From: a virus
Lineage: Duplodnaviria; Caudoviricetes
Length of the DNA: 34,648 nucleotides
Virus record (IMG/VR): IMGVR_UViG_3300032328_000119
Coordinates: 1-34,648 of that record
Strand: one strand, 5' to 3'
Shown: piece after piece, positions 5,527 to 24,911 of the stretch
Numbering within the stretch: position 1 is the stretch's first letter
Layout: each line of letters starts with the position of its first letter
Made by a program: the position numbers and the translations under genes
Notes under the pieces: generated by a model
Database searches by the model: none
Seen by the model: the letters and a program-made list of their open reading frames with translations, nothing else
Told to the model about the DNA's origin: nothing

Positions 5527-6116
5527 GTATTACTTCCCGTTGTTTTGTCTGTCCAAGAGTTACTTGTAACATTTGATGCTGTCCAAGTATTGCTATCTAC
5601 TGTTTTGTTTGTCCAATTGTTTCCTGTAACGGATGCTGCTGTCCATGTATTAGTACCTATAGCAGAATTACTCCATTCCTCACCAATTCTGTACCCAATA
5701 GCAATTATAGAGGCTATGCCAGTAATTGATGAGTTTCCAGATAAGATTGCATTGCCGTTTGCATCAACTGTACCAATGCCAATTAGTGATCCTTCTCCGG
5801 CAACAACAATACCGCCTAATCCTGTGATAGTTCCAACGCCAATTACAGATCCTTCAGCGTTTTGTATTCGAATGGCTACAGCATCTACTGTGCCAATTCC
5901 ATTAATTGAAACTATGCCATTCTGTACTCTAATGCCTAATGCAGATGTAGTTCCAACTCCATTAATAGATCCAATGCCAGAGAGGATAGCAATAGGACTG
6001 CCACTAGCTGTGCCTATGCCATTAACAGATCCAGCTCCATCTGTAGCTAATACATCTCCTACTGCATAGATGTAATCCCAGTATCCATAAACTACATATT
6101 GGTCTGCGTAAGCCAT
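5511..6116 (-). CDS. Virion/tail protein with G(S/I)xxG(I/V)GT repeats and W-T C-terminal repeats
   Basis: 201 aa; recurring GSVNGIGT-like units and ~10-aa N(T/S)WT repeats. Confidence 0.6.
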   Translation of the reverse strand: MAYADQYVVYGYWDYIYAVGDVLATDGAGSVNGIGTASGSPIAILSGIGSINGVGTTSALGIRVQNGIVSINGIGTVDAVAIRIQNAEGSVIGVGTITGLGGIVVAGEGSLIGIGTVDANGNAILSGNSSITGIASIIAIGYRIGEEWSNSAIGTNTWTAASVTGNNWTNKTVDSNTWTASNVTSNSWTDKTTGSNTWLPQ

Positions 6117-13815: not shown

Positions 13816-15844
13816 TAGGGATATTAGCCGTTGGTGATAGTTTTGCGCCTAGTTGTAATGCCTTTAACTGAGCCTCGTACTCAAATTCCTGTTTCTTAAG
13901 AGCCATAGTCATCTCGAACTCTTGCTGCTTGAGTCTGATCTGAGCCTCTGCCTTAACTTGGGCAATCTGAATATCGTTCTCAGCCTTGGCGTTATCTGCT
14001 GCCATCTTAGCTTGCATCTGAGCCACATAAGCCTCCATTGCTGGATCTTGTTGCTGCTGTTGCTGTTGGCCTTGCAACTCCATCTGCTGCTCTTGCTCTG
14101 GGGTAATCTCCATAAAGAACTCGTTAGAGTCCTTAAAGCCAGCAGCCTCAATAAACCGACCAAGTGTCTGTCTATAGTTTGTAAGGCTTACCAATGGATT
14201 GTTAATTCCTACAGTCTTTAGGATTTCCTCTTGCTTACCTAGAACCATAGCAATCATCGCCATCTGCTCTTGCTTGTTGCCTGTACCTAGACCAACATTG
14301 ATAGAGATGTCAAAGCCATTAGTCCACTCACGAGGATCAATAGAGACATACTTACCACGCAAACGCACAATGCGCTCTTTATCTTGGTACTTGCAGAGCA
14401 ATTGTAGAATCTTCTGGAATAGGTCTTTTACGCCTGTTTCAGCAAATACCCTAGCGATTAGCTCTACCTTGCCTGCTGCGCTACTCTGCATCATGGCTAC
14501 TGCTGTAGCTGTGCTGTTCTGCAACACATCTGGATTAAGGCCGTTCATCTGGTCTGATACACCAGTTCTCTTAGCCTGTACAGAATCCAAGTATTCCAGT
14601 AATGGGAATGATTGGTTAGCAGTAGGTGGTACTGTCAATGGCACAATGGCTTGGGTATTTTTCATACGCACAATGCCATTAGCTGTAACTGTTAGCAGAT
14701 CATCTAGGTTTACTTGACCTTCTACAACACCCATTCTTGGGCTATTAGTCATATACAAGTTATCTAGGATTTGGCGAGTAACTGTAGACTTAATCAGTTG
14801 GATGTCTACTGCTCTATCTGCCAGGCTATGTCCAAAGAACTTATGTGGCATAGGGATTGGGCATACGGAACAGAAAGGCACAAAGTCTGCCTCCTCGTTA
14901 TCAAGGATCTCTGTGCCAGCATAGGTAATCTTACGCAACTCAGCAATACCATCGCCATCAAAGTCTACCTTGATATAGACTTCCATTACCTCAATCTCTT
15001 GCATGGTAAAGTCTAAACTTGCTTGATCGCTTGGCTGCTCACCTTGATCGAACCTTGCCACATTCTCTTGGTTATAAGTAAGGTCTGCATAAGTAGGAAG
15101 GTTATCTACAATATCCTTCTCATAGCCCATTGCAATCAACTCTGAGCGAGTAGCTAGTTTTCTATGGGCTACGAATGGTGCATCAGCAATAGTCCTAGCC
15201 TTCTTGGAGATTAAGAACTCCTCTGGTGGCACATTTTCTACAATTACCTTGCCAGTTTTCTTAGTCTTTTTGAGCTTAACATCGTAAGAGAAAACGGCTG
15301 GAATCATCATCCCCATAGGGTCAATGCCTGCCGGAGCAATCTCTGTAGTCTTTTGGTTTACTACTTCTACCTCTGGATCAGTAAGCAGCATCGCTACTTC
15401 GTCTTGAGTTAGGTTTTGATACTTCTCTTTGCTGACATCAATCTTCTCATCCCAATAGACTTTAACGATTCCGTTCTTTTGCAAGAGCGCATCCTTAAAC
15501 CAATTGTGCATAAGCAATACGCCATCGTTATCACGATTCATTACCCAGTTCACATACTCTGTGGCTTGCTTTGCTTTTTCTTCATCGCCTGGGCCTTTAG
15601 GCTCAAAGCGCACAATCTCGTCTGACTGTGTAAAGATACGCAGTAATTGTGGCAGCGCACCATCTACTACTTCGGCTACTTCGCCTGTAACGATCTGGCT
15701 ACGACCTTCTACTTCATTGCCGTATTCGTAACGATTGTAGTATTCAAGGGCTTTTCTACGATCATCTGTAGTTTCGCTCTCGATAAAGCCAATAGCGTTA
15801 TCTATCTCGGCATCGAGTATGCCTTTTAGTGTGCCTTCATCCAT
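13805..15844 (-). CDS. Portal protein (P22-like, with long C-terminal helical barrel)
   Basis: 679 aa following terminase; FKDALLQKNGIVKVYW, ENVPPEEF, VGLGTG motifs; Gln-rich coiled-coil tail. Confidence 0.9.
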   Translation of the reverse strand: MDEGTLKGILDAEIDNAIGFIESETTDDRRKALEYYNRYEYGNEVEGRSQIVTGEVAEVVDGALPQLLRIFTQSDEIVRFEPKGPGDEEKAKQATEYVNWVMNRDNDGVLLMHNWFKDALLQKNGIVKVYWDEKIDVSKEKYQNLTQDEVAMLLTDPEVEVVNQKTTEIAPAGIDPMGMMIPAVFSYDVKLKKTKKTGKVIVENVPPEEFLISKKARTIADAPFVAHRKLATRSELIAMGYEKDIVDNLPTYADLTYNQENVARFDQGEQPSDQASLDFTMQEIEVMEVYIKVDFDGDGIAELRKITYAGTEILDNEEADFVPFCSVCPIPMPHKFFGHSLADRAVDIQLIKSTVTRQILDNLYMTNSPRMGVVEGQVNLDDLLTVTANGIVRMKNTQAIVPLTVPPTANQSFPLLEYLDSVQAKRTGVSDQMNGLNPDVLQNSTATAVAMMQSSAAGKVELIARVFAETGVKDLFQKILQLLCKYQDKERIVRLRGKYVSIDPREWTNGFDISINVGLGTGNKQEQMAMIAMVLGKQEEILKTVGINNPLVSLTNYRQTLGRFIEAAGFKDSNEFFMEITPEQEQQMELQGQQQQQQQDPAMEAYVAQMQAKMAADNAKAENDIQIAQVKAEAQIRLKQQEFEMTMALKKQEFEYEAQLKALQLGAKLSPTANIPNVL

Positions 15845-21286: not shown

Positions 21287-21326
21287 TTGTCATTTAATTT
21301 TAATTAATTTATTGTATTATATTCAA
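21287..21326. promoter_or_regulatory. Overlapping divergent sigma70-like promoters
   Basis: Plus strand TTGTCA(21287)-17-TATTGT(21310); minus strand TTGAAT(21326)-18-TAAAAT(21302). Confidence 0.45.
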
Positions 21327-21332
21327 TATCTT

Positions 21333-22325
21333 ATGGCAAAGGTAGATATGAAACGATCTAATGCAGCAGATGAGAAATTTATAGAGTGTTGGAAAAGACT
21401 TGGCTCTCCTACTTTAGTAGCAAAAGAGCTAGGTATTAACCCTAGGAGCGCATTAAATAGACGAGCTGCGCTAGAAATCAGGCACGATATTAAATTGCCA
21501 ACTCTTAATTCTTTAAGAGATCCACCAAAAAAGCTAGAACAAACTCCAGGTCATGTAAGGCGAGGAATTGAAATAAAAGATAAGGGTAAAGTTATTGTAT
21601 TTTCTGATGCTCACTTTCAGCCTGGAGAAATAACACCAGCATACAAAGCATTATTAAAAATGATTAAGACCTTCAAAAGTGATTTGAAGGCTGTCGTGGC
21701 TAATGGGGATATGTTTGATGGATCTGGTCAAGTATCTAGTCATCCACGAATGGGATGGGCTAAAGCTCCTACTGCAAAAGAAGAATTAGAGTGCTGCATT
21801 GAAATGATGGCTGGGATTGAGGCAGTCGTACCAAAAGGCGTACCACTAATATGGACTGCTGGAAATCACGATGCTAGGCTAACTAATTACATTGCAAGGA
21901 ACGCTCCAGCATTAGAAGGTTTGCCAATGACTGAATTAAAAGATTTCTTCCCCTCATGGAAATCTTGTTGGTCGTTCTATGTAAACGAAGATACTGTAAT
22001 TAAACACAGGTTTCGTGGTAACGGATTTATCAATACCAAAATGTCTGGTATTAATATCGTAACTGGTCATACCCACCAGCTTAAAGTAGAGCCTTGGACA
22101 GACCTATCACCAAACTTTAATATGGGTACTCGCTATGGAGTGCAAACAGGAACATTAGCTAATCCGCACTCAATGGCCTTTGAGTATGTAGAAGATAATT
22201 CAAAGGACTGGCGTCCTGGAGGCGTTCTTTTATCTTGGGAAAATGGTAGATTAATATTGCCAGAAATTTTCCAAGTAAGCGGAGAAGATGAGTATGAATT
22301 TAGAGGACAGATTCATAAAATATGA
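21333..22325 (+). CDS. Calcineurin-like metallophosphoesterase with N-terminal HTH-like region
   Basis: All five motifs present: SDAH, NGDMFD, GNHD, KH, GHTH. Start uncertain (ATG 21333 or 21348 rather than the track start at 21312). Confidence 0.85.
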   Translation: MAKVDMKRSNAADEKFIECWKRLGSPTLVAKELGINPRSALNRRAALEIRHDIKLPTLNSLRDPPKKLEQTPGHVRRGIEIKDKGKVIVFSDAHFQPGEITPAYKALLKMIKTFKSDLKAVVANGDMFDGSGQVSSHPRMGWAKAPTAKEELECCIEMMAGIEAVVPKGVPLIWTAGNHDARLTNYIARNAPALEGLPMTELKDFFPSWKSCWSFYVNEDTVIKHRFRGNGFINTKMSGINIVTGHTHQLKVEPWTDLSPNFNMGTRYGVQTGTLANPHSMAFEYVEDNSKDWRPGGVLLSWENGRLILPEIFQVSGEDEYEFRGQIHKI

Positions 22326-22669
22326 GGATTACCCCATTTATTCTGGAACAAATGTATTTGTCTTTTTCTTGCTGCCATCCGCTAAGAAAATGGGACTTAC
22401 CACCACCAGAATTAATCCAGTTCAAGGTAACTAGGGAAAAGGATGCAATGGCTACCTACCGCTATCAAGAAGATTTAGATAGACCTCACATTATTACAAT
22501 TAGCAGATTAAAAAATGAACAGTTGGGAACAATCCAACGCTCGTTAATACATGAGGTATGTCATATGAGCTTTTGGAAAACAGGCGCATGGGATAAGCAT
22601 GGCACAGCATTTAGAACTCGCACCAGGCAAGTAGCCAGGGAGTTTGGCTGGGACTCTCTAGAGCTTTAA
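22322..22669 (+). CDS. SprT-like zinc metalloprotease
   Basis: ITIS...LIHEVCH (HExxH)...HGTAF; ATGA-coupled to the phosphoesterase. Confidence 0.75.
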   Translation: MRITPFILEQMYLSFSCCHPLRKWDLPPPELIQFKVTREKDAMATYRYQEDLDRPHIITISRLKNEQLGTIQRSLIHEVCHMSFWKTGAWDKHGTAFRTRTRQVAREFGWDSLEL

Positions 22670-23528: not shown

Positions 23529-23680
23529 TGTCTTTCCATTTCGTCTTTTAGTTTAAGTGTGGCTTCCCATCCACGCTTTTCTAATACTAAAGCTAACTGT
23601 TTTCGTCTAGTTGCTATAGGCCATGTTAGTAGCTCTCTGGCCTCACATTCATTGCGCCATTCCTCGCTGCTCGTATTCAT
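23441..23680 (-). CDS. Hypothetical protein
   Basis: SEEWRNECEARELL...KRG motif; GGGGA upstream. Confidence 0.6.
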   Translation of the reverse strand: MNTSSEEWRNECEARELLTWPIATRRKQLALVLEKRGWEATLKLKDEMERQWKLTRTKQSNLSSNNQESLHLPKQIELI

Positions 23681-24911
23681 TTATTCTTTCCCCAATCCAA
23701 CGCATTACCGGCACAGCCATAGAATTACCTAATGCTTTGTACCTTACACCACTTGGGCAGTTTTCTTTAATGTTAGTGTAATTGTCTGGGAAACCCTGTA
23801 ATCTTTCGCACTCTATTTCTGTAAGTCTGCGTACTGCCATATTTCCAATAATAGGAATATGACCACCACCAGCACCCATAGCATTAGTTAAGGTTGGGCT
23901 AATATTTTCTCCAATAGCAGCATTTGGATGTTGTCCACCTATACAGCCAACGCCAGCTCTCTGTCCTGTAGTTAATGTATTAGATTGATTTTCTAAAAAA
24001 TTCATTTCATCGGGTCTAGCGTTTGTATTAAAACCAAAAACATTTTGCACAAAAGGTATATTTCCACCACCTGACCCCCAGGTGCTTGTAACAGTTTGGC
24101 AAATATCACCCATTTCTTTAACTCTACTATCAGATGGATGATTTTCGTATGCAATCATAGTAAAACCATCTGCCCTTGAATAATCATTGCAAGTTGTTTC
24201 TAAGCAATTAGCAATTTTTGGTGTTGCTACCATTTTCATATAGCGTTCATTACAATCGTCTGAGCTTATTCCTTTGTAATCTCTTGCTGTGAGTGGGCCA
24301 CAGAGTTGAGTGCTGATTCCAGCATCGGTGGTAGTTTCTTTCCACGAGCTTCTGCCCTTCGCAATATTCCCTGACAGGCTTTCGGACTCAAATAATACTT
24401 TTGCGGAAGATTCCCAACCTCCAAGACATCCGACAACAAACACTCGTCTGCGCCTTTGTGCGACTCCGAAGTTTTGAGCATCAAGCACCCTGTAGGCCCA
24501 CCCATACCCGAGTTCAACCAACGCACCGAGGAAGCTGCCAAAATCTCGCCCCCCCCCAGAACTGAGGACACCTGGCACATTTTCCCATATGCACCACTTG
24601 GGTCTAAACTTGTCAAGAATTCCAACATAGGTGAGAGCAAGGTTGCCTCTTGGATCGTCAAGTCCTTTGCGTAAGCCTGCAACGCTAAATGATTGGCAGG
24701 GAGTTCCTCCGACCAAAAGTCCGATTGAGTCATCTAATTTCCATTCTTTATATTTAGTCATATCACCAAAATTGGTAACTTGTGGGTAGTGATGTGCAAG
24801 TACCTGGCTTGGAAATTTCTCAATTTCGCTAAATCCTACTGGTTTCCAGCCCATGTGATGCCATGCTACTGTTGCTGCCTCTATGCCAGAACAGACCGAT
24901 AAATAATTCAC
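23649..24911 (-). CDS. DNA (cytosine-5)-methyltransferase
   Basis: Motif I SVCSGIEA, IV GGTPCQSFSVAG, VI WENVPG, VIII QRRRRVF, IX RRLTEIECERLQGFPD, X YKALGNSMAV. Confidence 0.95.
   Translation of the reverse strand: MNYLSVCSGIEAATVAWHHMGWKPVGFSEIEKFPSQVLAHHYPQVTNFGDMTKYKEWKLDDSIGLLVGGTPCQSFSVAGLRKGLDDPRGNLALTYVGILDKFRPKWCIWENVPGVLSSGGGRDFGSFLGALVELGYGWAYRVLDAQNFGVAQRRRRVFVVGCLGGWESSAKVLFESESLSGNIAKGRSSWKETTTDAGISTQLCGPLTARDYKGISSDDCNERYMKMVATPKIANCLETTCNDYSRADGFTMIAYENHPSDSRVKEMGDICQTVTSTWGSGGGNIPFVQNVFGFNTNARPDEMNFLENQSNTLTTGQRAGVGCIGGQHPNAAIGENISPTLTNAMGAGGGHIPIIGNMAVRRLTEIECERLQGFPDNYTNIKENCPSGVRYKALGNSMAVPVMRWIGERINEYEQRGMAQ
24266..24733 (-). CDS. Nested +1-frame ORF within the methyltransferase, M.EcoHK31I beta-polypeptide-like
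   Basis: 155 codons open inside the MTase; RWLNSGM...LSDVLE...KYYLSPKACQGILRRAEARGKKLP; GGA about 7 nt upstream of ATG. Confidence 0.6.
   Translation of the reverse strand: MTQSDFWSEELPANHLALQAYAKDLTIQEATLLSPMLEFLTSLDPSGAYGKMCQVSSVLGGGEILAASSVRWLNSGMGGPTGCLMLKTSESHKGADECLLSDVLEVGNLPQKYYLSPKACQGILRRAEARGKKLPPMLESALNSVAHSQQEITKE

Follow-up and report, generated by a model that had tools for sequence, protein, structure and literature searches.

Can a DNA methyltransferase gene carry, in an overlapping reading frame of its own, a second protein on which the enzyme depends? The question is raised by a locus in IMG/VR virus record IMGVR_UViG_3300032328_000119, a tailed phage whose whole record of 34,648 bases (hereafter referred to as the window) was analysed. 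On its minus strand, an open reading frame (ORF) of 155 codons is nested within the gene of a C5 cytosine DNA methyltransferase. A reading made from the letters alone (the sequence-only reading) likened the nested product to the β subunit of M.EcoHK31I and proposed a heterodimeric, overprinted phage enzyme. According to PMC2836561, M.EcoHK31I β is encoded wholly in another frame of the α gene (PMC3404938 agrees) and is separately initiated; α contains motifs I–VIII and X together with the target-recognition domain, β contributes motif IX, and the two chains, both of which are needed, must associate. The sequence-only reading had described this enzyme as two chains, with β read from an alternative frame and bearing motif IX, which agrees with that text and with the allele that we fetched. 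Here we report that the nested ORF of the window is almost certainly a translated gene, to judge from its conservation, and that its product is probably a structural subunit of the methyltransferase that encloses it.

The enclosing gene encodes a recognizable C5 methyltransferase, laid out as follows.

23649..24911, minus strand: main (α-type) C5 cytosine DNA methyltransferase gene, GTG start, 420 amino acids, motifs I–X in frame
24693..24701, minus strand: motif IV of the main chain, catalytic Pro-Cys-Gln (PCQ 71-73)
24444..24458, minus strand: motif VIII of the main chain, QRRRR (152-156)
23841..24374, minus strand: variable region, residues ~180-357, likely target recognition, low model confidence
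23787..23834, minus strand: motif IX, main frame (in β in M.EcoHK31I)
23682..23744, minus strand: motif X, main frame

The main chain matches Pfam PF00145 over residues 1-411 (E 1.5e-55) and scores 182.9 bits against TIGR00675 (cut-off 100.65), and both alignments and Foldseek liken it to M.HaeIII and M.HhaI. Motifs I–X, numbered by the standard C5-methyltransferase scheme and checked against our alignments, follow one another in order on a Rossmann-like fold, and include the catalytic Pro-Cys, ENV (motif VI, residues 110-112) and Q.R.R. Block profiles place motifs IX and X in the main frame. Modelled alone, the chain reaches a predicted local distance difference test score (pLDDT) mostly above 85 over residues 1-170, except 71-90, and above 85 over 361-420, and residues 187-338 are poorly resolved.

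The nested ORF lies wholly inside this gene at an offset of 178 nucleotides, which is the +1 frame, and covers main codons 60-215/216.

24266..24733, minus strand: nested β-type gene, +1 frame, ATG start, 155 amino acids, homologous to M.EcoHK31I β residues 10-110
24497..24523, minus strand: nested residues 71-79, RW.NSGMGG motif, common to M.EcoHK31I β 36-43
24386..24436, minus strand: nested residues 100-116, LSDVLE...KYYLS, in frame after motif VIII in single-chain relatives
24290..24385, minus strand: nested residues 117-148, two confidently predicted helices, nested frame conserved here

It spans motifs IV, VI, VII and VIII and about 60 codons beyond motif VIII. The length, the +1 offset and the overlap with motifs IV–VIII are thus as the sequence-only reading had given them, with both ORFs on the minus strand, and the C-terminal sequence that it quoted is present. 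When the main chain was recoded synonymously, none of 20,000 sequences kept the +1 frame free of stops under either of two null models, which gave means of 11.4 and 7.8 stops. In 12 other long genes of the window, the longest stop-free +1 or +2 stretch was 92 codons and the others were at most 60.

The same frame is open in related phages. The main chain retrieved 239 IMG/VR relatives, and all of the best 80 of them, which were analysed, match the nested protein in the +1 frame. Stops were counted in 79 (one sequence, cut at its 5′ end, was excluded): over codons 60-200, the +1 frame contains no stop in 77 and one stop in 2, against 6-17 stops in the +2 frame over the same codons and 3-9 in the +1 frame over codons 1-59. 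Frequent interruption, which would have spoken against a gene, was not seen, and the avoidance of stops foreseen by the sequence-only reading is borne out. Its other expectation, suppressed synonymous variation, holds as well. Removal of duplicates left 71 sequences (including the window and L002), removal of four incomplete or frameshifted ones left 67, and clustering at 97% gave 56 representatives. Diversity at fourfold sites was 0.58 upstream of the overlap (19 sites) and 0.57 at motifs IX–X (18 sites), and fell to 0.27 at codons 60-129 (32 sites) and 0.12 at codons 130-200 (22 sites), with Mann–Whitney p values of 3e-8 and 4e-10 if sites are taken as independent. The pairwise ratio of non-synonymous to synonymous change (pN/pS) over main codons 62-160 was 0.19-0.26 in the main frame and 1.1-1.4 in the nested frame; it was 0.64 and 0.29, respectively, over codons 161-180, and 1.60 and 0.38 over codons 181-205. 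These ratios show conservation passing from the main frame to the nested frame along the overlap. On this comparative evidence the nested frame is under selection and the gene is confirmed as dual-coding, and we regard translation of the nested ORF as close to certain.

General databases say little about the product. The nested protein has no Pfam or NCBIfam match and one weak PHROG match (phrog_16143, E 3.4e-8). ESM Atlas relates it only to unnamed viral clusters, with a low recognition score of 1755 that does not decide whether the gene is real. With the nested model as query, Foldseek returned nothing at E < 0.001 and VIA reached at best Z 5.5, with generic helix pairs. None of the public RNA runs searched contained more than 0.05 of the sampled words, and the sequencing runs that did match consist of DNA contigs.

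The informative likeness is to M.EcoHK31I β. A primer from supplement 1 of PMC2836561 matched 80 of 5,426 Escherichia coli genomes, and our reference is a near-identical RefSeq allele (L116, WP_001328257.1) rather than the HK31 record, with at least one residue differing from the primers. At this locus, a 309-residue α and a 176-residue +1-frame β, with termini as in the primers, lie beside an annotated endonuclease. The nested protein of the window matches the β of this allele by BLASTP (39% over 74 amino acids, E 2e-12), by a family hidden Markov model (HMM; E 3.6e-24) and by hhalign (nested 45-146 against β 10-110, 98.7%, E 2.7e-16, 101 columns, 33% identity), so that the resemblance first noticed in the RW.NSGM...LS.VLE pattern is one of homology. 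The N-terminal parts of the two α chains are 42% identical over 173 amino acids and the variable regions do not align. The C-terminal motif IX of the allele's β aligns to residues 360-381 of the window's main chain. A different split, as proposed by the sequence-only reading, is what the alignments give: motifs IX and X are in the window's main chain, and the allele has IX in β and X in α.

What, then, does the nested chain contribute, if not motif IX? A clue comes from the single-chain methyltransferase of Bacteroides phage BT12 (L357), which carries the LSDVLE-type segment in its only frame, beyond motif VIII, and whose +1 frame is closed. Its relatives comprise 64 viral sequences, which were reduced to 23 distinct proteins (35 dropped by motif filters, 6 duplicates). 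Just after motif VIII, a profile of the nested segment matches 13 of the 23 with an independent E-value (iE) below 0.01 and all 23 at 0.17 or less; hhalign of the nested segment against this family gives E 1e-5. The same profile finds no such segment in the 71 overprinted main chains (best iE 34). The sequence-only reading had stated that the main frame lacks the segment, which stands, and that many C5 methyltransferases carry it in frame; the second statement holds for one Bacteroides-phage family and not for 'many' families, and no methyltransferase segment was matched when the nested protein and profiles were compared with solved structures (best E 1.4, 0.0078 with an unrelated splicing factor, and 0.6). 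Dcm- and DNMT2-like enzymes may have a similar segment after motif VIII. The RW.NSGMG strand found no match in the BT12-type single-chain enzymes.

Structure prediction supports binding of the nested chain to the main chain. Alone, the nested protein has a mean pLDDT of 57 and models well only at residues ~101-150. With the main chain, nested residues 58-152 gave a complex score of 0.70, against 0.00 for the best of three controls; among 157 solved complexes, 116 reach the 0.70 mark, as do 2 of 215 mismatched pairs. The runs agree in at least 68% of contacts, with a partner pLDDT of at least 71. In the predicted complex, nested residues 74-79 run antiparallel to main residues 137-142, and the interface includes motif IX residues 358-371 (361 with nested 114) and variable-region residues 252-291; the contacts of these last two regions share no DNA with the nested gene. 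The two-chain prediction suggested by the sequence-only reading returns a complex, with an overlap artefact possible.

An initiation region would be expected if ribosomes start within the main gene, and one is recognizable immediately upstream of the nested ATG.

24734..24749, minus strand: initiation region of the nested gene, a purine stretch coded within Lys-Glu-Trp of the main frame, then a +1-frame stop directly before the ATG

The purine stretch has the weak form AAAGAA in the window and reads AAGGAG in 24 of the 56 representatives. A +1 start codon follows it by 7-10 nucleotides in all 56 (40 ATG, 13 TTG, 3 GTG), and AAGGAG accompanies 16 of 16 TTG or GTG starts against 8 of 40 ATG starts, a comparison among related sequences with few independent events. 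In 80 GTDB loci, a start codon lies near the expected place in 76 and a Shine–Dalgarno-like word precedes it in 56, against 134 of 380 control windows.

The layout is widespread. Profiles of the nested protein found 592 viral and 196 GTDB loci, of which the best 80 of each, a set that leans towards the window's clade, were analysed. In all 160, which were selected for matching the nested core, the core is at +1 to the ORF with motif VIII and contains no stop. Motifs IX and X share the main ORF at 77 viral and 69 GTDB loci (146 of 160); elsewhere they are in the nested ORF (1), in another ORF (4) or were not found (9, of which 7 are short contigs). With M.EcoHK31I β as query, 19 viral loci were found, and all nine that were classified have motif IX outside the nested frame. 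Seven phage records were taken from among the weaker matches of a tblastn search, and six of them, from Bacillus, Lactococcus, Parageobacillus, Caulobacter, Streptococcus and Mycobacterium phages, use the same +1 frame (the seventh is BT12). In the Lactococcus and Parageobacillus phages, the nested protein stops about ten residues beyond KYFLS. By tblastn, 154 of 50,697 GenBank phage records match, and a scan with short patterns gives an estimate of ~9,900 matching IMG/VR stretches. As separate observations, 531 plasmid records, mostly P1-like and from E. coli, match the nested gene; one Thalassobaculaceae chromosome (OY829383.1) holds five overprinted methyltransferase loci (L218, L220, L226, L229 and L231); and in mycobacteriophage Dove (L361:811-1929) a main-frame stop separates motif VIII from IX–X, the two parts being annotated as genes 107 and 108, with the nested frame intact; the enzyme may be in three pieces, or the allele broken.

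A quick tree of motifs I–VIII (49 rows; one single-chain family as the only outgroup, and no test of a single clade) groups M.EcoHK31I, with support of 94, with two loci that have motif IX in α, among overprinted forms. This placement suggests that motif IX in β is derived; among the fetched relatives, IX in α is the common form and M.EcoHK31I looks like a special case. EcoHK31I-like forms appear to exist elsewhere, because ~20 of 120 length-selected proteins carry the nested core and motif IX without X. Of the 120 length-selected matches, 73 join the nested chain to both IX and X, plus 5 with only the LSDVLE block before IX–X. We considered this join as a common alternative split and rejected it: it occurs at only 1 of the 160 profile-found loci and at 2 of 79 loci retrieved with one of these proteins as query, among which L121 and L278 are one contig. 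Several of the junctions sit at G runs, and most of these proteins are likely slippage alleles or assembly errors.

How might the pieces work together? We favour, with fair though incomplete confidence, a two-chain methyltransferase that needs the nested chain as a structural subunit, to supply the connector that follows motif VIII. Ribosomes would initiate at an internal site of the same message, some 60 codons in; the first ~55 nested residues would be a likely poorly folded leader. The RW.NSGMG strand would dock on the edge strand of the catalytic domain, in the region of motif VII, and the LSDVLE..YYLS segment with the two helices would pack on motif IX and the variable region, completing a scaffold in the small domain by which the target-recognition region is kept in place against the catalytic domain.

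Several observations weigh against this proposal. None of the ten motifs is missing from the main chain, and the need of M.EcoHK31I for β, which carries IX, is not automatically transferable. The best-scored contacts of the complex centre on shared nucleotides (main 137-138 are nested 78-79), and covariation induced by the overlap may have seeded the strand pairing; complex scoring also tends to accept the halves of a split enzyme because they resemble methyltransferases of known structure. Against the single-chain enzymes, the aligned stretch is a short one of 28 columns (probability 82%), and it concerns one family only. Over codons 62-160 the nested pN/pS of 1.1-1.4 is below the 1.5-2.0 outside the overlap yet stays above 1, as the main frame predominates over these codons. 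According to the deletion series of PMC2836561, M.EcoHK31I β shortened up to Δ50 retained part of its activity in cells, and Δ67 still worked when tethered to a zinc finger; activity starts falling at Δ37, where the shared RW motif is reached. Because Δ50 and the tethered Δ67 stayed active, the RW strand by analogy would aid association and not be strictly essential. Finally, an amber stop at nested codon 121 removes the two helices in 2 of the 79 homologues.

L003:1035-1499 and L019:731-1171 (window equivalent 24371-24373): amber alleles, in two otherwise different phage contigs

Possibly this is a circulating truncated allele. It may be tolerated, because the Lactococcus and Parageobacillus versions end naturally at about the same point.

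The strongest rival, which we consider unlikely but worth keeping in view, draws on some of these points: the nested protein would be real and would bind, yet act as an accessory or regulator that tunes stability, level, timing or target choice, or inhibits, while the main chain methylates alone. The complete set of motifs, a catalytic domain that models well by itself and the amber allele are in its favour. It accommodates less readily that the post-VIII segment kept by the single-chain family is absent from the main chain and present in the nested chain, or that the nested frame has been retained in phages as different as freshwater ones, P1, mycobacteriophage Dove and those of Firmicutes; the amber allele, moreover, keeps the minimal core, as do the natural versions that end after KYFLS. 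That the nested protein works apart from the methyltransferase, the overlap being genome compaction only, is very improbable: its two helices do model confidently alone, but it overlaps motif VIII of a methyltransferase in the +1 frame at all 160 profile-found loci, the homologous β chain is a proven subunit, fusions to IX–X exist and the complex model supports binding. We give equally little credence to an open frame that is a by-product of main-frame amino acids, codon bias or an RNA signal, with nothing translated. Low synonymous diversity alone cannot separate a second protein from a nucleotide-level signal, and the ESM Atlas score is low; against this stand the absence of any open frame among the synonymous recodings, the closure of the +1 frame in the single-chain family and outside the overlap, a nested pN/pS of 0.3-0.4 where the main frame drifts, and homology to an expressed protein.

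A last rival has the +1 frame reached by frameshifting or transcriptional slippage, giving a single trans-frame protein, and is suggested by a homopolymer in the overlap.

24549..24557, minus strand: run of nine G, glycines in both frames, slippage-prone

The 120 listed relatives of the nested protein include 18 fusions of a main-frame N terminus to a nested-frame C terminus, and 16 of the 18 switch frame at the G run; ten G occur in one public-run contig; and slippage at G runs is known from a C5-methyltransferase gene (PMC3812077). Yet the run is found in only 16 of the 79 homologues, with no G run longer than 4 at that place in the rest; among 33 IMG/VR contigs that contain it, 32 have a run of exactly nine G; motifs VII–VIII would be missed by a change of frame at this point; and the start codon and purine stretch are kept in 56 of 56 representatives, with M.EcoHK31I β separately initiated. 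We hold this route to be scarcely likelier than the two preceding ones. The G9 run could be an on/off phase switch in one sub-clade, or a sequencing error; we read it as incidental slippage or error and not as the mechanism. Forms with eight and eleven G yield main-N/nested-C fusion proteins, and ten G are found in L092 and in one contig of public run X2. The idea that a slip at the run makes two reciprocal working chimeras was rejected, as it fails the frame arithmetic: one slip joins one pair of halves.

Extended beyond the window, the two-chain proposal becomes a claim about a large class of phage and prophage C5 methyltransferases, in which two chains would be obligate, the connector would be in its own +1 frame, and M.EcoHK31I would be a derived member whose motif IX moved later; we lean towards this wider claim, less firmly than towards the proposal for the window. 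If true, the class spans freshwater phages, coliphage P1, mycobacteriophages and Firmicutes phages and is mostly unannotated, so that two chains would make up many of the phage methyltransferases now annotated as single genes, including that of P1. Codon-optimised or recoded genes would lose activity despite an unchanged annotated protein, and the resulting prediction, that recoded synthetic versions are inactive, is relevant to methylome and restriction-modification screens. The role of the β chain would be reassigned, its conserved core being a connector segment and not motif IX, which also offers a natural, smaller split point for the engineering of targeted methylation. To our knowledge, very few same-strand, fully nested genes encoding a subunit of their own host enzyme have been described. 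This layout, conserved across very different phages and unannotated even in P1, makes it practicable to study how part of a protein ends up encoded in a second, overlapping frame of the gene to which it belongs; relocation of the connector from a single-chain to an overprinted form is the suggested direction of change.

The surroundings are those of a phage genome. Terminase, portal, major head, tail-fibre, Sak-like and exonuclease genes are present in the window, whose closest public sequencing runs are metagenomes, from freshwater where a habitat is labelled. The methyltransferase gene sits among minus-strand genes of the replication region; the stop of its upstream neighbour, a replication-initiation-like gene, overlaps its GTG start. 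No restriction endonuclease gene was recognized among the scanned neighbours (a nearby 100-residue HNH-like ORF matches only phrog_1588), and by its gene context the methyltransferase is an orphan with no recognized partner nuclease. It likely methylates cytosine C5 in phage DNA, blunting host restriction. Orphan methyltransferases of mobile elements guard against restriction or regulate viral cycles, according to PMC12707154. The length of the variable region differs widely among close relatives (L007-L082), the whole main chain ranging over ~325-510 amino acids, and public-run contigs have parts of the region replaced, as expected of exchangeable target-recognition modules. No repeats of note occur inside the gene.

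Palindrome avoidance is strong over window 1-34648: ACGT and CGCG are absent (~54 and 29 sites expected), GGCC stands at one third of expectation, and the absent 6-bp palindromes include TGCGCA, CTGCAG, AAGCTT, GAGCTC, GTTAAC, CCATGG, TGATCA and GATATC. The pattern suggests heavy restriction pressure in the host; the counts did not identify the target of the methyltransferase. At 21312-22669, on the plus strand within the minus-strand gene run, lie a metallophosphoesterase gene and a 115-residue ORF with HEVCH, which we take to be a zinc-protease-like motif. Two antisense ORFs, 14199-14717 and 5545-6069 (172 and 174 codons), stand opposite the portal gene and a structural gene and have no PHROG match.

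Set beside known systems, the window is closest to M.EcoHK31I, whose specificity is YGGCCR and whose layout has been termed an unusual architecture. The literature searched, which was largely without subscription papers or REBASE, yielded no description of the nested gene in phages or of the form with IX in α. In both systems, a β-type chain is read from the +1 frame of the catalytic gene over motifs VI–VIII, and the target-recognition region and motif X are in α. They differ in that motif IX is at the C terminus of M.EcoHK31I β, whereas the nested chain of the window ends earlier and leaves IX in the main chain; the nested start is at main codon 104 there and 60 here; and an annotated restriction endonuclease adjoins the M.EcoHK31I gene, whereas the window's gene is a phage orphan. 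The window enzyme would thus work like M.EcoHK31I but, lacking motif IX in β, is not a strict member of its type. In M.AquI, as described in PMC3404938, two chains likewise form one C5 methyltransferase, with the cut in the variable region (I–VIII / IX–X) and no nesting described; the main chain of the window is continuous from I to X, and the rare relatives with the nested chain and IX–X in one frame have an AquI-like topology. The BT12-type enzymes are a single chain with L.D.LE...KY.LS in frame ~15-35 residues after motif VIII, where the window has it in the nested frame, and their +1 frame is closed by 8-14 stops. Phage P1 Dmt (AF234172) is a bifunctional C5/N6 enzyme fused to a Dam domain, unlike that of the window, but its C5 half shares the open +1 frame and keeps IX and X in the main one. 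In dmt, the open frame (L001:2297-2788) runs for 163 codons from stop to stop and matches the family HMM at E 8e-34, in a GenBank record that annotates no nested coding sequence in dmt.

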